Below are positions 7,571 through 24,270 of a DNA stretch of 64,000 nucleotides, one piece after another. The DNA lies in IMG/VR virus record IMGVR_UViG_3300024239_000017; one strand, written 5' to 3'. The notes under the pieces were generated by a model. It had not been told where the DNA came from, searched no databases, and saw only the letters and a program-made list of their open reading frames with translations. Numbering within the stretch: the first letter of the stretch is position 1; each line of letters starts with the position of its first letter. This DNA comes from a virus. The position numbers were made by a program, and so were the translations under genes.

Positions 7571-7792
7571 ATGAAAACAAACATTTTATCATTCCTATTA
7601 GGAATCTGTATGATGATTATTTTATCAATGGGAACAAAGACAAATAATTTATTTATTGTAAAACCAGCAAGACCTATTTCTGTAGTGAAAACAAGTAGCT
7701 GGGAAGAGTCACAACAATTTATAAGAAAAGGTTATATTGTAAAAACAGCTTTTGGAGATTATCACAAGTCATACATATTAGAAAAGTATTAA
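7571..7792 (+). CDS. small exported/membrane protein
   Basis: Hydrophobic N-terminus; paralogue of 20668..20925. Confidence 0.65.
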   Translation: MKTNILSFLLGICMMIILSMGTKTNNLFIVKPARPISVVKTSSWEESQQFIRKGYIVKTAFGDYHKSYILEKY

Positions 7793-14970: not shown

Positions 14971-16833
14971 ATGGGATTCAGAATTAATTCACTTTATTTA
15001 AGTGATGGATATAAAGTTGGGCATAAAAGCATGTTAGCCCCAGGAACAACAAGATTATATGGTACATGGATACCTAGAAGTTTAAAACATGCCCCTAAAG
15101 GTATTAATAAAATAGTTACATTTTATTATCAAGCGGTTTGGAAAAGATTGAATGACGAATTTAATGAAAACTTTTTCTTTACAGCAGAAAGAAACCTTGC
15201 AATACTTGATGGAGATCAAGATAAATTTGAAGAATTGAAAGTTAATGCAATGGTTTTTGCAAAAGATATGTCCGATTATCTTGGTATGGACTATGACGGA
15301 AATCATTTTGGACAATTATGGGATATAGGTTATTTACCTATAAGAGTTAAAGCATTACCTGAAGGTATAGAAACTCTTCCTAACATTCCTCATATGACTT
15401 TTATCAACACTGTTAAAGGTTTTGGATGGCTTACTCTTTACTTAGAAACTATTGTAAGTAATCAAGCTTGGAAAGGTAGTACTTCTGCTACTATTGCTAA
15501 ATTATATCGTAGACAAGCAGAAGAATGGGTTAATAAAACAGATAAAGCTAATATTGGATTAGTAGATTGGATGTGCCATGATTTCTCTTCTAGAGGATTG
15601 TCTGGCGTAGATGATATGATTACTGTTGGATTGGGACACGCTACTTCTTTTAGAGGTTCTGATACATTAGTAACTATACCTGCTGCAAGATATTATTATA
15701 ATGAAACAGAAGTTTGTATTGGTTCTGTAAATGCATCTGAACACTCTGTATCTACAACTAAAATTTTCACTGTTGGTGAAAAGCAAATGATTATTGACTG
15801 GTTGAAAGAAATTCCAAATGGTATTTTTTCAATGGTTTGTGATACATTTAGTACTTGGCAATTTATTGAATATTTAAAGGATCCTGAGATTAAAGAACTA
15901 GTACTTAATCGTAATGGTAAATTAGTAGTAAGACCTGATTCAGGAGACCCCGCAGATATTATTTGTGGTAAAAAACCTAAGAAAAGAAAATATTTTGCAG
16001 AATATTCTGAAAACGATATAGAAGAATGGTTAGAAATTTCATCAGATGAAATGATAACTAATATATTAAATGATAAAGAATATATCTATGAATTAGATGA
16101 TTTCTTACCATCAATGAGTGGTGGAAGAGATTATACTCCTGATTTTAAAGATGGGCAAACATGTTATATAAAAATAGGTAATAGAGTAATCGCATTTGAA
16201 GTATATACAGGAGAATGTGTAGAAGCTACTTGGGCTCATACTATTAATGAAACAGATATAAAAAATCTGAGAGAAGTAGACCCAATAGAAAAAAATTCAC
16301 CCGAAGCAAAAGGAGTTGTAGAACTTCTTTGGGATATTTTTGGAGGAACAGTTAATGAACAAGGTTATAAAGTATTAGATCCTCATATCGGTGCCATTTA
16401 CGGTGATAGTATTACACCTGAAAGACAAGTAGATATTTATAAAAGACTATCTGAAAAAGGATTTGCATCAACAAATATAGTTTTAGGTATAGGTTCATTT
16501 ACATATGAATATATGACTAGAGATACTTTAGGTTTTGCTGCAAAAGGAGCATGGTTTGAAGTAGAAGGAGAAGGTAAGTGCAATTGTGGTCATACAATAG
16601 ACTGTGACTGTGTAAAACAATATGATATTTATAAAGACCCTATTACAGACGACGGTACTAAAAAATCATTAAAAGGATTTTTACAAGTATACAAAGATGA
16701 ACAAGGAGAATATAGAGTCAAAGAACAATGTACTGTTGAAGAAGAAAATACAGGAGAATTACAATTGATATTTGAAAATGGTAAATTCTTTAATCAAACA
16801 AGTTTAACAGAAATTAGAAATAGATTAAAATAA
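14971..16833 (+). CDS. nicotinamide phosphoribosyltransferase-like enzyme (NAMPT/Namat)
   Basis: DGYKVGH, HDFSSRG, GSDT, ASEHSV, VRPDSGDP, IYGDSIT, KDPITDDGTKKSLKG. Confidence 0.9.
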   Translation: MGFRINSLYLSDGYKVGHKSMLAPGTTRLYGTWIPRSLKHAPKGINKIVTFYYQAVWKRLNDEFNENFFFTAERNLAILDGDQDKFEELKVNAMVFAKDMSDYLGMDYDGNHFGQLWDIGYLPIRVKALPEGIETLPNIPHMTFINTVKGFGWLTLYLETIVSNQAWKGSTSATIAKLYRRQAEEWVNKTDKANIGLVDWMCHDFSSRGLSGVDDMITVGLGHATSFRGSDTLVTIPAARYYYNETEVCIGSVNASEHSVSTTKIFTVGEKQMIIDWLKEIPNGIFSMVCDTFSTWQFIEYLKDPEIKELVLNRNGKLVVRPDSGDPADIICGKKPKKRKYFAEYSENDIEEWLEISSDEMITNILNDKEYIYELDDFLPSMSGGRDYTPDFKDGQTCYIKIGNRVIAFEVYTGECVEATWAHTINETDIKNLREVDPIEKNSPEAKGVVELLWDIFGGTVNEQGYKVLDPHIGAIYGDSITPERQVDIYKRLSEKGFASTNIVLGIGSFTYEYMTRDTLGFAAKGAWFEVEGEGKCNCGHTIDCDCVKQYDIYKDPITDDGTKKSLKGFLQVYKDEQGEYRVKEQCTVEEENTGELQLIFENGKFFNQTSLTEIRNRLK

Positions 16834-16834
16834 A

Positions 16835-17779
16835 ATGAAACTTCCTTGGAATAAAGATAATAGTGTGAAATCAGTAAATATACCAGAAGGTGATAAATCT
16901 TTTGGTGATCTTATAATGGATAATTCAATCGAAATAAGGATTATAAATGAATTTTATTACAAAGTCTTAAGTTATCCAGATGGTAGTAAATATGTCAAAG
17001 TTTATAACATTTATAACGATTTAACTTTTAAAATTAATTCTTATGAAGATTTATGGATTTTAAATCAGATACATGACGTGGTTAAAAGTAAAGGTAGGTA
17101 TGTTACTGTAACAATACCTAATTTAATTGACGCTCAAGCAGATAGAAGATTCAATTCAGATGAATCTAGTGGATTAAAATTAGTTTGTAACTTTTTAAAT
17201 GGTCTTTCTAATTTCAATTATAAGATATTTCATCCACATAATCAAGAAGTAGTTGAAGCTTTATTAGATAGAGTTGAAATCATTGATAATTCCGAATTTA
17301 TAAATCAAGTAATATCTATTAAATTGAATGCAAGAATAGATAACTCGGTAAAAGATAATTTAATTTTAATGAGTTCTGATGCAGGAGGATTCAAACCCTT
17401 AATGAAATTAGCTGATAAACTTGCTTGGAGAGGTGAAACTTTCTCAGCGTCTAAATCTAGAAAATATGAAGAGGGTAAATCAAAATTACTTCAACAAATT
17501 GATAGACAGGACTTTAATGGAAAAGATATTCTCATAATAGATGATATATGTGTTTATGGGGGAACATTTAAAGGTCTTGCTAAAATGTTAAGAGAAAGAA
17601 ATTGTGGTAAATTATATTTAGCTGTAAGTCATATGACAGTTGAAAATTTAGGTGAAGATCCTGTAACTGATTACTTTGATATGGTTTATACTACTAATAG
17701 TAAATTTGAATTTTATGATAAACCAGAAAAATATCATGGAGACAGATTAGATAATTTAGAAATAATTAAATTGTTTTAA
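16835..17779 (+). CDS. ribose-phosphate pyrophosphokinase-like enzyme (Prs/Adps)
   Basis: YPDG, DAQADRRF, HPHN, SDAGG, ILIIDDICVYGGTF (PRT loop) and LAVSH. Confidence 0.88.
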   Translation: MKLPWNKDNSVKSVNIPEGDKSFGDLIMDNSIEIRIINEFYYKVLSYPDGSKYVKVYNIYNDLTFKINSYEDLWILNQIHDVVKSKGRYVTVTIPNLIDAQADRRFNSDESSGLKLVCNFLNGLSNFNYKIFHPHNQEVVEALLDRVEIIDNSEFINQVISIKLNARIDNSVKDNLILMSSDAGGFKPLMKLADKLAWRGETFSASKSRKYEEGKSKLLQQIDRQDFNGKDILIIDDICVYGGTFKGLAKMLRERNCGKLYLAVSHMTVENLGEDPVTDYFDMVYTTNSKFEFYDKPEKYHGDRLDNLEIIKLF

Positions 17780-18822: not shown

Positions 18823-19276
18823 ATGAAACAAATAAAAGCAATACCAAAATTAGTTTTCGATAAACACTTTACTAATAAGGAGTTTGAATATTATGATTAC
18901 TCTTGTTTTATTTCAATACTTGATATTGATAATAATGAGCAAAAGTTTGATAAATCAATAGACAATTTTCTACAAGTAAAAATATGGGATATTGAAGAAG
19001 ATCTGTTTGAAAATGGTGAGTTAAAATATGAAAAACCAAATGATAAAGAACTAAAAAAAAATAGTTGATTTTATAAATAAACATAAGGATAAATCAGTAT
19101 TTATAGTTCATTGTTCTGCTGGGATTTCTCGAAGCGGTGCGGTTGCAATTTTTTTGTATGATAAATTTTTGTCAGAAATAGACAAAGAACAATTCAGAAG
19201 AGAAAATAAATACATAAGACCAAACCTTTATATTTTAAACAGATTGAAGTATTTAGATATTGTCGTTTTAGAATGA
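18823..19276 (+). pseudogene. protein tyrosine / dual-specificity phosphatase, frameshifted at an A9 run (cassette 1)
   Basis: Removing one A from 19053-19061 fuses the ORF to ...FIVHCSAGISRSGAVA...IRPNLYIL*, which has the HCxxGxxR motif. Confidence 0.8.
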
Positions 19277-19277
19277 C

Positions 19278-19372
19278 GACTAACGGTTCGGGTATATATT
19301 CAGTACCCTTGCACCGAACTTAAAAATTTAATATAAACTTTAATAGGGTATTGTATATATACTTTGTTAGCA
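19278..19372. repeat. attC-like site 1
   Basis: GACTAAC ... GGTATATATTCAGTACCCT / AGGGTATTGTATATATACT ... GTTAGCA. Confidence 0.75.
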
Positions 19373-19385
19373 AACGTTAATTATT

Positions 19386-19634
19386 ATGGATGAAGTTAAA
19401 ATGTTTTTATTTGCAAGGTGGATTGCTACTTGCTATGCTGATACACATTTAGATAGTAAAATGAAATGTAAGCACGATGAAGGATTTAAAGAGTCAGAAG
19501 CAATCTCAGTTTTAAATAGAGAAACAGGATATTGGTATAAGGAACAATTAAAACATTTTAACGATGTCGTGTATCCGAACTACATTGAAAACGGAACAGT
19601 TGAAAATACGAAACAGTTCTTTAATGTTTGCTAA
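19386..19634 (+). CDS. cassette 2 hypothetical protein
   Basis: The stop TAA lies within the TAAC core. Confidence 0.75.
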   Translation: MDEVKMFLFARWIATCYADTHLDSKMKCKHDEGFKESEAISVLNRETGYWYKEQLKHFNDVVYPNYIENGTVENTKQFFNVC

Positions 19635-19759
19635 CGATTTGGTGTTTCTGAAGAACGGGCTACGGAAACTGAACTGACTAAATATAACTGAAATAACAAC
19701 TAAAATCGCAATAACAATAGATGTTTTTAAACCCGTTTTTTAGAAACATATTGTTAGCA
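19629..19759. repeat. attC-like site 2
   Basis: TGCTAAC ... TGTTTCTGAAGAACGGG / CCCGTTTTTTAGAAACA ... GTTAGCA. Confidence 0.75.
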
Positions 19760-19776
19760 GCAGTAACACTAATTAT

Positions 19777-20064
19777 ATGGCACTTGATTTAGAAGAAATG
19801 AAAAAAAATATAGACGAGTTTTTAGCAAATATAACACAAGAGGAAATTAACAAATATTTTCCTCCTGATACTCGTCCAAAAGGTTGGTTAAGTATTGAAG
19901 AATATTTACCAATGATGTGTGCAATTGACATTGTACAGGGATATACACTTTATAAAGTGAAAGACAAGAATGGTAACGAATTTGAAAGTGCTGTATCAGA
20001 CCATAATAATTGGTATTACTACGCAAAAGAAGAAGGTATTACTCACTGGTGGAATGGAGAGTAG
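19777..20064 (+). CDS. cassette 3 hypothetical protein
   Basis: ORF filling the cassette. Confidence 0.75.
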   Translation: MALDLEEMKKNIDEFLANITQEEINKYFPPDTRPKGWLSIEEYLPMMCAIDIVQGYTLYKVKDKNGNEFESAVSDHNNWYYYAKEEGITHWWNGE

Positions 20065-20071
20065 TTATTGC

Positions 20072-20203
20072 TGCTAACGTTTTGCGTGTATAAGAAGTGG
20101 CGTAGAACGTGCCGAAGCATTACAAAAATTAAATAATTATAAATTAATAAATAACCAATCCAAAACTGCCGATAGTAGCCATTTTTTATACACGCTGTTA
20201 TCT
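20072..20203. repeat. attC-like site 3
   Basis: TGCTAAC ... GCGTGTATAAGAAGTGGC / GCCATTTTTTATACACGC ... GTTATCT. Confidence 0.75.
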
Positions 20204-20233
20204 TTCAGTTGCGGGTTTTAAAAACAGAATATT

Positions 20234-20467
20234 ATGAACATTCAAGACGAATTACAGAAAATCCACCATCAGTATGGAACAAGCGAAAAAGCTAATTATG
20301 AAATACAAAAACTATTTGACAAACAAATTAGAGAAAGTGATTTTTTAGCGTGTCATTTTACTAAACATATTTTAAATATGCCAAATAATAAATTAGAGAG
20401 TAAAACAGTAAAAGAACATTACTCAGAGTTTAAAAAACGTTATTTAGAAGAAAATAGTAGCAATTGA
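20234..20467 (+). CDS. cassette 4 hypothetical protein
   Basis: ORF filling the cassette. Confidence 0.7.
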   Translation: MNIQDELQKIHHQYGTSEKANYEIQKLFDKQIRESDFLACHFTKHILNMPNNKLESKTVKEHYSEFKKRYLEENSSN

Positions 20468-20597
20468 AGATAACGTTCGAGCATTGGCGAAGTGCAGACT
20501 AAGGATGCCGAACCTGAAAGGTTCAAGTCCGTGGCAAACGAAGGCAAATGCGACTATTAATAACTCAACTCTGCATTTTGCCAATGCTGTGTTATAC
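20468..20597. repeat. attC-like site 4
   Basis: AGATAAC ... AGCATTGGCGAAGTGCAGA / TCTGCATTTTGCCAATGCT ... GTTATAC. Confidence 0.75.
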
Positions 20598-20667
20598 GAA
20601 GAAGTTTTTTAGCAAAGGCAATACGGCTGGAACAGACGTAAATATTAACAAAGAAATTATATAAATA

Positions 20668-20925
20668 ATGAAAACAATTACAGGATTTATTTTCGGATTA
20701 GTAATGGCAATTTTAATTTCAGCCACTACCATCAATACCAGTTTAATTACAACAAAACCAAATACTCCAAAATCTGTTTTAGTGAAAGGATTTGGATATA
20801 ATGAAGAAGAAGAAATTCAGCAATACGTTTCAGCTTGTACCAAAGACGGTTATGTTGTAAAATCGCTTAATGGTGGTGGTGGAAGTGGAGGAAGTTGGTG
20901 GTTTTTAGTGATGGAAAAATATTAA
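20668..20925 (+). CDS. cassette 5 small exported/membrane protein
   Basis: Signal-like N-terminus; paralogue of 7571..7792. Confidence 0.75.
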   Translation: MKTITGFIFGLVMAILISATTINTSLITTKPNTPKSVLVKGFGYNEEEEIQQYVSACTKDGYVVKSLNGGGGSGGSWWFLVMEKY

Positions 20926-21011
20926 AACACAACATTATAAAAAAAAGCGATGGCAAAAAACTTTTTTGTATAACACAAAAATAGACGCAATAAAAGTATT
21001 ACAAAAACACG

Positions 21012-21197
21012 ATGAAGCCTTTGTACACAGAAGTTTTTACGCTCAAAATTTCAAAGCAACAAAAACAGACTTTAGAGAAGTTGAAATCAAGAAATATAAA
21101 GGTTTCATCTTTTGTAAGAAAAGCAATTGCGGAGAAAATAGAGCGTGATTATGAAAATCTAAAAGAAAAACCTAAAAAAGAATATTGTCCTTTTTAA
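21012..21197 (+). CDS. ribbon-helix-helix DNA-binding protein
   Basis: VFTLKIS..QKQTLEKL..RNIKVSSFVRKAIAEKI fits the beta-helix-helix pattern. Confidence 0.7.
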   Translation: MKPLYTEVFTLKISKQQKQTLEKLKSRNIKVSSFVRKAIAEKIERDYENLKEKPKKEYCPF

Positions 21198-21235
21198 TTT
21201 AAAACTTCCCACTAGTAAGTAAGTGGAACTATATA

Positions 21236-21529
21236 ATGAACAAAAAAGAATTTTATAATGACAATGATAAAGCATTTTTTGATGCTGGATTTGAAAGAAC
21301 AGTTGATGATGAACTATTTCTATACTTTAAACAATTAATTTCTGAAGATGAAATTGAAAATCATGATTTAGAAGAGGAAGAAGTTCCAACACTTTTATTT
21401 GGAACCAATGGAATAAATAGTGGTTTTGCTATATATACAGGAACACATTTCATTTGGATTGATTCTGAAACACCTAAAGATGCAAGTGATTTTGCTGATA
21501 AAATATTATCATTTGACACAATATTTTGA
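21236..21529 (+). CDS. hypothetical acidic protein
   Basis: Packed ORF. Confidence 0.65.
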   Translation: MNKKEFYNDNDKAFFDAGFERTVDDELFLYFKQLISEDEIENHDLEEEEVPTLLFGTNGINSGFAIYTGTHFIWIDSETPKDASDFADKILSFDTIF

Positions 21530-21531
21530 AT

Positions 21532-22302
21532 ATGAAAAGATTTAAGTTATATAAAGTTGGGGGATGTGTAAGAGATTCTATATTAGGAGAATCTCCAAAA
21601 GACATTGATTTTGTTTTTGAATTTACACAGGATTTTCTAGATAGTGTTATAGGAAATGCCTCTGCAAACGTTTTATATATTACAATGAATAAAATGTTAG
21701 AACTAGAAGGTTTTACTATATTACAGGATTTACCAGATTATTTTACAACTAAAGCAAGATTTCCTAAAGGACATAAATATGAAAATTTAGTTGCAGATTT
21801 TGTAATGTGTAGAAAAGAAATTTATACAGATTCATATAGTAGAAGACCTATTGTTTCTCCTGGTACCATATATGACGATTTAGAGAGAAGAGATTTTAGA
21901 ATGAATGCTATTGCAGAAGATGAAGAAGGTAATATTATAGACCCTTTTAACGGTGTAGAAGATATTAAAAATAGGATAATAAGTTGTCCTAAAAATGCAA
22001 AACATTCTTTTTCAGAAGACCATCTTAGAATGCTAAGAGCAATAAGATTTTGTATAACTAAAGATTTTACTCTCGATGACGAGGTATGGGAAGCTTTATG
22101 TAATAAGAACTTTTGGACTAATTTACAATATCATGTTTCTATAGAAAGGATAAAAGACGAGTTATACAAGTGTTTTAAACATGATACTATTAGAACTATG
22201 AGATTGCTAATAGATATTGAATTTTTTGCAGAAATACTTATTTTAGAAAATATTTTCCCTGAAAAATTATGGTTAGAACCAACATTAAAAAGTAGAAAAT
22301 AA
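21532..22302 (+). CDS. cca: tRNA nucleotidyltransferase (CCA-adding/poly(A) polymerase family), short form
   Basis: VGGCVRD..LG..PKDIDF, DDLERRDFRMNAIA, DPFNG..DI, EDHLRMLRAIRF and SIERIKDEL. Confidence 0.88.
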   Translation: MKRFKLYKVGGCVRDSILGESPKDIDFVFEFTQDFLDSVIGNASANVLYITMNKMLELEGFTILQDLPDYFTTKARFPKGHKYENLVADFVMCRKEIYTDSYSRRPIVSPGTIYDDLERRDFRMNAIAEDEEGNIIDPFNGVEDIKNRIISCPKNAKHSFSEDHLRMLRAIRFCITKDFTLDDEVWEALCNKNFWTNLQYHVSIERIKDELYKCFKHDTIRTMRLLIDIEFFAEILILENIFPEKLWLEPTLKSRK

Positions 22303-22901
22303 TGAACAATTTTTACAAATTAAAAAGTTATGTAGATAATCTTGAAGTAGATGATTTTCTATATATAGAAATTATGATTCGCAATAAAGATCAAAAAGAT
22401 AATATTGGTAAAAATAATAGAATTATAAAATCTTACAAAGTAGATATTTTAACAGATTTGAATAGATTAGAAGAAGATATTAAAAAGTTATGTAAAACTT
22501 TTAATGCTAGAGCATACATATATTTATCTCCTAGAAATAATGAAAAAGTATTTTCAGAAATGTTATTGTTAATGGCTAATTATAATAAGATGAAAAATTA
22601 TGATTCAATAAATAGAGTTTTTGATAAAGCATTAAAAAGTATAAAAGGTTCAATGAAACATTTTATAATTGATATAGACACTAAAGATCTACATTATATA
22701 ACAAATGTTAGAGAAGAAATAATAAATAGCGCTAAGTTAGATTCTATAGAAGCACCACTAATAGATATTTTTGAAACAAACAGTGGTTATCATATAATAA
22801 CTAAACCTTTTAATTATTACAAAACTTTTAAAGATAAATTTCCAGATATAGAAATACATAAAAATAATCCTACTTTACTTTATTATGATGGTAAAGTATA
22901 A
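22302..22901 (+). CDS. hypothetical protein, possible AEP/prim-pol-like fold
   Basis: IIDID...ETNSGYHII motifs. Confidence 0.6.
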   Translation: MNNFYKLKSYVDNLEVDDFLYIEIMIRNKDQKDNIGKNNRIIKSYKVDILTDLNRLEEDIKKLCKTFNARAYIYLSPRNNEKVFSEMLLLMANYNKMKNYDSINRVFDKALKSIKGSMKHFIIDIDTKDLHYITNVREEIINSAKLDSIEAPLIDIFETNSGYHIITKPFNYYKTFKDKFPDIEIHKNNPTLLYYDGKV

Positions 22902-22911
22902 AAAATAAATT

Positions 22912-24270
22912 ATGATAACAGGAAAAGATTTAATAGCATTAGGATATATTCCTAATAAGCTATTTGGGGACGCAATAAAATATATAAATACATATGAATT
23001 ATCTACAGAAGAAATCAAATCTTTTCTAGATGAATTCTTTAAACCAACTCCTACTTTGGAGCCTTTTAAAACTCCTGTAGATTATATTCTTAATATTGAA
23101 GTAGAAAATCAAGACGAAGTAAACAACCTTAGTGCCATACACAATACTATGCAAGTCTTAATGAAGACTCCTACAGTGTTAACAGGTGTAATAATGCCTG
23201 ACGCTTGTCCTACAGGAGAGCCTGGTCAGATACCTGTAGGTGGTGTTGTAGTAACAGAAAATGCTATACACCCATCTATGCACTCAGCAGATGTATGTTG
23301 TTCAGTTATGACTTCTGATTTAGGTAAAATTGATCCTAAAGAAGTATTAGATATAGCATTTGCAACCACACATTTTGGTGCAGGCGGTAGAAAAGAACAT
23401 GGTGGTTGGGGAGATTTACTATATGATAATAATTACTTAGTAGAAAAAATACTAGGTAATTACTATACAAAAGATTATATAGAAAAAGCAGCAAAACATT
23501 TAGGAACTCAAGGTGATGGAAATCACTTTTTATTCGTAGGTATTTCTGAAAAAACAGGTAATACTCATATAGTAACACATCATGGTTCTAGAGGATTTGG
23601 TGCGGCAGTATATAAAAAAGGAATGGACACAGCAGAAAAGTATAGAAAAGAGCTTTCTCCAAATACTTTAAAGAAAAATGCTTGGATTCCTTATGATAGT
23701 GTAGAAGGTAAATTATATTGGGAAGCTCTTCAAATAGTAAGAGAATGGACTAAACTTAATCATGAATCACTTCATAATAGAATTATAAATAAATTAAAAA
23801 TTCAATATGAAAATAGATTTTGGAACGAGCATAATTTTGTTTTCAAAGACGGTAATAAATTCTATCACGCTAAAGGTGCTACACCATTAGAAGATAAATT
23901 TGTACCTGATTCACAAAATGGATTAAGATTAATACCTTTGAATATGTCACAACCTGTTTTGGTTGTAAAAGGTGAAGCTACAGATACAAATTTAGGATTT
24001 GCACCTCATGGTGCTGGTAGAAATGTATCAAGAGCAGAACATCATAGAAGACACGCTAACAAAACTGACGAACAAGTTTTTAAAGAAGAAACAAAAGGAC
24101 TTGATGTTAGATTTTATACAGGTAAAATAGATATATCTGAGTTACCTAGTGCATATAAAAATGCAGAAAGTGTACAAAGACAAATAGAAAAATTTGGACT
24201 AGGTACTGTTGTGGATAGAATAATGCCTTATGGTTGTATAATGGCAGGAAAACAAGAAAAATTTTATTAA
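22912..24270 (+). CDS. rtcB: RNA 3'-phosphate ligase RtcB
   Basis: MPDACP, SADVCCS, GTQGDGNHF, THHGSRG, HNFV, HAKGAT, PHGAGR and SELPSAYK. Confidence 0.92.
   Translation: MITGKDLIALGYIPNKLFGDAIKYINTYELSTEEIKSFLDEFFKPTPTLEPFKTPVDYILNIEVENQDEVNNLSAIHNTMQVLMKTPTVLTGVIMPDACPTGEPGQIPVGGVVVTENAIHPSMHSADVCCSVMTSDLGKIDPKEVLDIAFATTHFGAGGRKEHGGWGDLLYDNNYLVEKILGNYYTKDYIEKAAKHLGTQGDGNHFLFVGISEKTGNTHIVTHHGSRGFGAAVYKKGMDTAEKYRKELSPNTLKKNAWIPYDSVEGKLYWEALQIVREWTKLNHESLHNRIINKLKIQYENRFWNEHNFVFKDGNKFYHAKGATPLEDKFVPDSQNGLRLIPLNMSQPVLVVKGEATDTNLGFAPHGAGRNVSRAEHHRRHANKTDEQVFKEETKGLDVRFYTGKIDISELPSAYKNAESVQRQIEKFGLGTVVDRIMPYGCIMAGKQEKFY

Follow-up and report, generated by a model that had tools for sequence, protein, structure and literature searches.

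Positions 19281-20974 of the DNA analyzed here, a window of 64,000 nucleotides (nt) from the virus record IMGVR_UViG_3300024239_000017, appear to hold four integron-like gene cassettes, arrayed without an integrase in a 132-kb phage and joined by hairpin sites that would constitute a distinct family of attC-like recombination sites. The + strand, which also codes for the cassette genes, is probably the strand of these sites that folds, which would make the array inverted relative to its genes. This conclusion rests on comparative evidence from related sites rather than on a count of G-T pairs alone. A G-T pair on one strand is an A-C mismatch on its complement, and fixed wobble pairs would therefore make the strands unequal, leaving the + strand as the one that folds well. 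In the mechanism that we infer, including the strand actually cut, the AA|C chemistry, and the enzyme, the + strand would be the one that a tyrosine recombinase, provided in trans by the host or a co-infecting element, recognizes and cuts at TAA|C. The mobile unit would consist of a hairpin, then a gene, then TAA, and the phage genes would lie on the recombining strand, opposite to bacterial cassettes.

Read along the + strand, each site consists of xxTAAC, 5-7 nt, the left arm of a 17-19 bp stem, a loop of 35-76 nt, the right arm, 1-4 nt, and GTTAxx. A symmetric scan of both strands, with an equal penalty on every non-Watson-Crick pair, found four sites of this build in the entire 132-kb genome, all within 19281-20594; an earlier hairpin scan without core anchors was drowned in AT-rich chance repeats. 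A covariance model, R1, was built from 26 sites and recovered 66 matches (65 distinct sequences) in phage contigs and in small-genome bacteria resembling the candidate phyla radiation (CPR). The elements of the window array, with R1 scores for the sites, are as follows.

19281-19369, + strand: site s1, 89 nt, 75.6 bits, with TAAC at 19281-19284 and GTTA at 19366-19369; G19285 faces T19365; stem 19292-19309 / 19345-19362, with T19300-T19354 and G19303-T19351.
19386-19634, + strand: cassette gene 1, 82 amino acids, orphan; end repeats GTTAGCAAAC(G)TTAA and TTAA(T)GTTTGCTAAC.
19632-19756, + strand: site s2, 125 nt, 83.9 bits; G19636 faces T19752; stem 19643-19659 / 19732-19748, with G19650-T19741 and G19653-T19738.
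19777-20064, + strand: cassette gene 2, 95 amino acids, orphan; module bounded by GTTAGCAGCA and TGCTGCTAAC.
20075-20200, + strand: site s3, 126 nt, 87.6 bits; G20079 faces T20196; stem 20084-20101 / 20178-20195, with G20094-T20185 and G20097-T20182.
20234-20467, + strand: cassette gene 3, 77 amino acids, orphan; end repeats GTTATCTT... and ...GAAGATAAC, with one bulge and one G-T.
20471-20594, + strand: site s4, 124 nt, 83.2 bits; G20475 faces T20590; stem 20480-20498 / 20570-20588, with G20489-T20579 and G20492-T20576.
20668-20925, + strand: cassette gene 4, 85 amino acids, with a signal-peptide-like N-terminus.
20955-20977, + strand: terminal lone R'' box, ...CTTTTTTGTATAAC ending at 20974; pairs with 20588-20610 via two G-T pairs; no hairpin follows.

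Each window stem contains exactly two non-Watson-Crick pairs, three positions apart, for a total of seven G-T pairs and one T-T pair on the + strand, and the right-arm partners of these pairs lie exactly 11 and 14 nt 5' of GTTA in 4/4 sites. A first-pass annotation of the window had described GAAG opposite TTTT in hairpins 2-4, and the symmetric scan recovered this arrangement in s2-s4, where it makes two G-T pairs each; s1 has a T-T pair plus a G-T pair. In every site, the G after TAAC also faces the T before GTTA, an extra G-T pair that closes the TAAC/GTTA box. Once this core-closing pair is counted, the two G-T pairs and one T-T pair that had been assigned to hairpin 1 are explained. The end repeats belonging to each gene pair over 14-23 nt, and our own reading agrees with the annotation that they deviate by + strand G-T pairs plus one bulge only; a repeat search scored the arms as 73-93% complementary. 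The repeats follow a chain logic, in which the GTTA... end of each gene is complementary to the ...TAAC end of the same gene, in all four window cassettes, in the array of a second phage (L005), and in a bacterial contig (L092). The window array ends with the lone TAAC at 20974, and the L005 array ends likewise.

Multiple lines of evidence support the assignment of the + strand as the folding strand. First, the stems covary. Over related sites, 94.8% of cells were paired, 446 cells were compensatory, and 20 of 24 pairs had changed on both sides, a result reached by none of 500 shuffles. The proposal that structure rather than sequence is conserved therefore holds for the stems, where covariation is strong, but not for the G-T pairs, which are conserved in sequence at fixed positions. 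The family build comprises a TAAC/GTTA core, an asymmetric internal loop of 4-5 by 1 nt, and a stem of 17-22 bp. AAC and GTT are invariant in 65-66 of 66 sites, and there is no bulged base in the stem in 55/66, so regular extrahelical bases are absent. The fourth base of the R' box is A or G in 64/65 sites, the fifth position is split between G (31) and T (29), and the sixth is mixed, in partial agreement with the RYYYAAC/GTTRRRY consensus.

Second, the non-Watson-Crick pairs are strongly biased between strands. Among 40 sites whose stem has no gaps and spans at least 12 bp, an unbiased stem scan counted 55 G-T/T-G pairs against 12 A-C/C-A pairs (p=1e-7), and the strand bias previously noted in the window thus extends to a larger set. 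The broader statement that almost all mispairs are G-T needs qualification, as only two fixed positions in the stem contribute to the excess. At the first, 14 nt from GTT, the pair is G-T in 31/38 sites in the stem scan and in 56/59 in the model-fitted alignment, and at the second, 11 nt from GTT, it is G-T in 12/40; outside the stem, the core-closing pair is G-T in 62/64. These G-T pairs are conserved signature pairs rather than a sign of general wobble tolerance. A pair that is near-invariantly G-T, and hardly ever G-C or A-T, indicates that the asymmetry itself is selected. An origin of the G-T excess in C-to-T mutation that acts unequally on the strands of an AT-rich phage, or in the shared ancestry of a few sites, is improbable in the extreme; the 27% GC, the strong strand skews, and the identity of GAAG/TTTT in three window sites would suit such an origin, but the bias is position-specific, always places its G in the 5' arm and its T in the 3' arm, and is kept across unrelated stem sequences, phages of 27-42% GC, and bacteria, so that the idea is contradicted over 65 sites.

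Third, folding energies generally favor the same strand. With RNA parameters, the + strand of the window sites was more stable by 3.5-9.6 kcal/mol; with DNA parameters, its advantage ranged from -0.2 to 5.0 kcal/mol, s3 being a tie. Across the family, the strand matched by the model was the more stable in 56/65 sites with DNA parameters (median -2.0 kcal/mol) and in 53/65 with RNA parameters (median -5.2 kcal/mol). The proposed C(C/T)GAA loop motif recurs in 20/66 related loops compared to 6 on the opposite strand, and shuffles gave 6.4, with a maximum of 14.

Fourth, the orientation of the sites relative to genes differs between phages and bacteria. Flanking open reading frames lie on the site strand in 77 cases and opposite to it in 9 in phages, and in 7 and 22 cases, respectively, in bacteria (Fisher p=7e-11). 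By our own reading of individual loci, 10/10 phage loci are mainly co-oriented and 12/13 bacterial loci are opposed (p=1e-5). The bacterial R1 search covered a single phylum, the one holding a metagenome-assembled genome (MAG) with a relative of cassette gene 2, and R1 matched 14 of its ~285 genomes; these numbers describe that phylum and do not imply the wider distribution of the family. Genomes of this phylum are 0.5-2.1 Mb and encode ribosomal protein L30 in 2/61 cases, compared to 13/14 controls. Small genomes without L30 are what we take to be a signature of CPR bacteria, or Patescibacteria, and the phylum presumably bears that name. The array on a 312-kb bacterial contig (G122:C3) illustrates the bacterial layout, in which a site follows each of the RidA-like, methyltransferase, and isochorismatase genes.

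Fifth, hairpins travel with the gene downstream on the + strand. The homology between the window and each of two other loci (L025 and L026) extends exactly from the TAAC of s1 to the TAAC of s2, and thus comprises one hairpin and its downstream gene. Similarly, records G001 and G006 share gene 2 plus most of the upstream hairpin. Among the phage comparisons, there was no case of a hairpin shared together with its upstream gene.

Finally, the classical integron offers a point of reference. In plasmid R100, the aadA1 attC site follows aadA1 on the coding strand, and intI1 is divergent. R1 scored 13.8 bits on the bottom strand of this site and 4.8 bits on the top strand, and this difference was repeated in a second plasmid. 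In 4/5 class 1 attC sites, AAC-A...C-GTT on the top strand corresponds to AAC-G...T-GTT on the bottom strand, matching the core-closing wobble of the window + strand, and the order along the classical bottom strand is AA|C, hairpin, gene region, as in the window. Taken together, the antisense orientation of 12/13 bacterial loci, the linkage of hairpins to downstream genes, and the match to the classical bottom strand argue that the window + strand is the equivalent of the integron bottom strand. The annotated view that the coding strand is the folded substrate and that the array is inverted relative to its genes gains support from the same three sources.

Cassettes of this type also move between phages. 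Metagenomes contain many relatives of cassette genes 1 and 2, and some phage contigs carry them in tight operons without sites. Other relatives sit in arrays of the same site type, including that of a complete 35-kb phage with ~14 cassettes (L005, L012, G001); a 137-kb record (G002) carries a 95%-identical copy of gene 1 in such an array, and several fragments are alike. Among GenBank phages, neither the region nor cassette genes 1 and 2 had relatives, and a genome-wide search of bacterial genomes gave none for gene 1; the corresponding search with gene 2 gave one 2.4-kb MAG contig. Gene 2 together with both core boxes is 86% identical in nucleotide sequence between window positions 19751-20080 and both L005 (5001-5331) and L013 (4974-5302). 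The phage of the window (G000) and G001 are otherwise unrelated, with 28% and 39% GC and only four shared proteins, namely cassette gene 2, a DnaB-like helicase, and two without a Pfam match. Judged by these sequences, gene 2 is a clean case of cassette transfer between unrelated phages.

Several observations weigh against a single recombining + strand. The gene 2 homology between the window and G001 has GTTA and TAAC(G) as its exact limits, and the hairpins on either side are different; the gene 1 homology between the window and G002 breaks at TAAC and GTTA boxes alike; L024 and L026 have a hairpin alone in common; and contigs from wastewater metagenomes branch at 20590-20592 (T|G|TTA of s4). 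Breaks at TAAC and at GTTA indicate that both cores act as breakpoints, which implies that the other strand is used as well, at a lower rate, or that the hairpins are replaced by another route. A more radical explanation is that TAAC and GTTA are both crossover points, so that gene modules (GTTA...TAAC) and hairpin modules (TAAC...GTTA) are swapped separately, on either strand or as duplex, and the G-T pairs only bias the reaction or serve another step. The gene 2 exchange, the shared hairpin, and the branching contigs all favor such swapping, but strict site polarity within arrays and near-invariant asymmetry features suggest that one strand matters, and hairpin replacement could come from decay or gene conversion; we consider independent swapping rather unlikely. 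The wastewater metagenomes also show very unequal depths among cassette pieces, and contigs of three wastewater runs carry s3 with its stem kept and a different loop. At the contig joints most sides are short (19-29 letters), making them hints only.

The composition of the mispairs is ambiguous in itself. Outside the two stem positions that carry the entire G-T excess, the remaining count is 12 to 11, and a C-A pair recurs 5 nt from GTT in 8/40 sites, a mismatch on the strand modeled here and a wobble on the other. Moreover, the invariant G-T pairs, taken alone, could equally reflect recognition of A-C mismatches on the complementary strand, the strand orientation was set by a model trained on phage sites (spacer asymmetry gives the same orientation), and the R1 score on classical attC is weak. 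The - strand could thus be the recombining strand, with genes in the classical orientation and with its A-C mismatches read as flipped-out bases in place of extrahelical ones. The non-Watson-Crick pairs do lie at fixed distances from GTT, where G-A and T-T pairs, mismatched on both strands, also occur, and the genes-then-sites order of the window is the classical R''...R' order on the coding strand. However, in bacterial arrays of the family the coding strand has the A-C version, the genes linked to hairpins are those downstream on the + strand, the classical bottom strand bears the G-T version of the core-closing pair, and the - strand fold is less stable in 56/65 sites. Recombination of the - strand is therefore unlikely in our estimation.

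The hairpins might instead act mainly in RNA, as G-U-containing elements of the sense transcript that serve in processing, stability, or punctuation between early phage genes. The + strand energy advantage is largest with RNA parameters, and the phage sites lie in the sense transcript. In bacteria, however, the same family is antisense to genes, and the option of an RNA mechanism that was raised at first pass is disfavored because the family occurs in both orientations relative to transcription. Rfam searches of the region gave no match at gathering scores, with chance-level matches at E of at least 1, and promoter-like and terminator-like sites were no commoner than in shuffles. The chain logic of the end repeats and the exact exchange of modules between unrelated phages likewise point to DNA recombination, and we regard a chiefly RNA-level role as quite improbable.

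If the + strand is recombined as proposed, the enzyme would have to come from elsewhere. Searches with PF00589 and TIGR02249 found no tyrosine recombinase or integron integrase in the 132-kb phage record or in five related phage records, and a site-adjacent recombinase was seen in one bacterial contig only (L079, G064:C5:1-1561); both points weigh against the proposed mechanism. None of the four proteins common to G000 and G001 is a recognizable recombinase. The window array packs its four sites into 1.3 kb, in a 92%-complete record devoid of tyrosine recombinases, and thus classifies as a cluster of two or more attC sites lacking an integron integrase (CALIN). In L079, a divergent tyrosine recombinase lies 80 bp from the site, which is the classical layout. 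This protein scored 152 bits against TIGR02249, for which the cut-off is 265, matching model positions 2-179 and 246-302 only; its best family is XerA-like, and it showed no match to the IntI-specific insert. Five other array-bearing genomes contain no close orthologue of the G064 recombinase, the best being ~32% identical. Along the site's own strand, the Xer-like gene of L079 directly follows the site and is co-oriented with it, a phage-type unit in which the hairpin comes first.

The window sites resemble the attC sites of classical integrons (class 1 aadA1 and Vibrio chromosomal integrons) in being imperfect palindromes with AAC...GTT cores and complementary cassette ends, in varying in sequence while conserving structure, in falling within lengths of 48-200 nt, and in sharing the bottom-strand AAC-G...T-GTT wobble. 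The bacterial members of the family resemble classical integrons further, with genes then sites and an integrase-like gene divergent beside the array. Unlike classical attC sites, those described here lack regular extrahelical bases and instead have a 4-5 by 1 nt internal loop and fixed G-T pairs, agree only partly with GTTRRRY past the fourth base, and have bimodal loops of ~36 or ~72 nt. Unlike classical integrons, the phage genes lie on the equivalent of the bottom strand, and the sole adjacent recombinase seen, a bacterial one, is Xer-like with no match to the IntI insert.

Integrase-less cassette arrays within phage genomes have a precedent in the CALINs of virulent phages, where IntI1 recombined the bottom strands better than the top strands (Qi et al., 2023, PMC9892861). 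R1 found no match in Polaribacter phage P12002L from that study, and the bottom-over-top result is not directly transferable because P12002L lacks a site of this family. The same paper (Qi et al., 2023, PMC9892861) does not contain this site family, the wobble signature, the lack of extrahelical bases, or a systematic inversion of genes. A full-text search for integrons in Patescibacteria returned no article whose title and abstract concern this family. IS200/IS605 and REP/RAYT elements, which depend on HUH Y1 enzymes that act on one DNA strand, offer a parallel: there, as in the mechanism proposed here, one strand of an imperfect DNA hairpin is recognized, mispairs are conserved, and a short motif for cleavage adjoins the stem. 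In contrast to those elements, the hairpin here is closed by its cleavage-like motifs, AAC and GTT, which are complementary to each other, and the units are chained gene cassettes rather than transposon ends; no Y1 transposase was seen, although no search was aimed at one. In T4-type phages, PeSL elements are repeats of a promoter plus a stem-loop that are conserved in sequence and recombine through their homology. As here, their stem-loops flank small accessory genes in hyperplastic phage regions and are associated with modular shuffling; unlike in PeSLs, the stems here differ in sequence and covary, and the promoter signal is not above chance.

Strand choice is a central puzzle of integron recombination. 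In classical integrons, the choice is ascribed to a special integrase domain that reads extrahelical bases, and the related family described here appears to reach the same asymmetry by wobble pairs alone. If true, such a wobble rule suggests how recombinases without the IntI domain could act on folded DNA, and the contrast in orientation between phages and bacteria provides a clean natural experiment on how cassette polarity is set. Tentatively, these arrays may represent a separate integron-like branch common to CPR-like bacteria and phages, in which invariant G-T pairs replace extrahelical bases, short Xer-type recombinases without the IntI insert act on the sites, and both cores are usable; phages with genes on the recombining strand might then form their own pool of accessory, possibly counter-defense, cassettes moving between unrelated phages. 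Bacterial cassettes are defense-like (SIR2, GmrSD, HEPN, UvrD-like) and phage cassettes are small accessory genes, and one and the same recombination grammar may thus be at work on both sides of the arms race.

Some features of the arrays merit separate description. Loop lengths are bimodal over the 66 sites, at ~35-37 nt or ~70-74 nt, and long loops (for example, 19660-19731, 20102-20177, and 20499-20569) resemble two tandem copies of a ~36-nt module (ATT...CTGTCAA...CAC-like), which suggests an extra arm or a second protein-binding site within the loop. The defense-like genes of the bacterial cassettes (L082, which is G122:C3:216000-230000, and L093, L080, and L092) comprise a 1052-residue SIR2-domain protein, GmrSD, a split UvrD-like helicase, and a HEPN protein, and the same loci also carry small enzymes (RidA, methyltransferase, and isochorismatase). 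The 137-kb relative has a second small array (L053, G002:C1:55361-56820), with sites in the order +, -, -, + around two + strand genes, which may be an inverted or bacterial-type cassette inside a phage.

The virus record is a single contig of 132 kb with 27-28% GC, 92% completeness, and strong strand skews, and 19281-20974 lies within a series of small + strand genes. The four cassette genes contain no Pfam families. Cassette gene 4 has a paralogue at 7571-7792 (36% identity, E=3e-9), in an ordinary operon without sites; its position outside the array indicates that the cassette pool and the phage accessory gene pool overlap. Just 5' of s1, at 18823-19276, is a gene for a Cys-based phosphatase-like protein with an HCSAGISRSG motif, frameshifted at an A-run near 19056-19063; contigs of three wastewater runs are one base shorter at 19053 or 19058, and the break may be a variant or an assembly error. 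The flanks of the array (14971-17779 and 21526-24270) contain a NAMPT-like gene, which matches annotated phage genes at the DNA level, and a CCA-adding enzyme, identified by Pfam and PHROG matches; a synteny search via the CCA-adding enzyme gave one distant locus, without sites. Directly 3' of the array, at 21012-21197, is a ribbon-helix-helix gene (DUF6290 / phrog_25647). In wastewater runs, the summed contig depth over 20922-21263 reached 800-1800 and far exceeded that of its neighbors, and the ribbon-helix-helix gene is evidently common to many genomes in wastewater.

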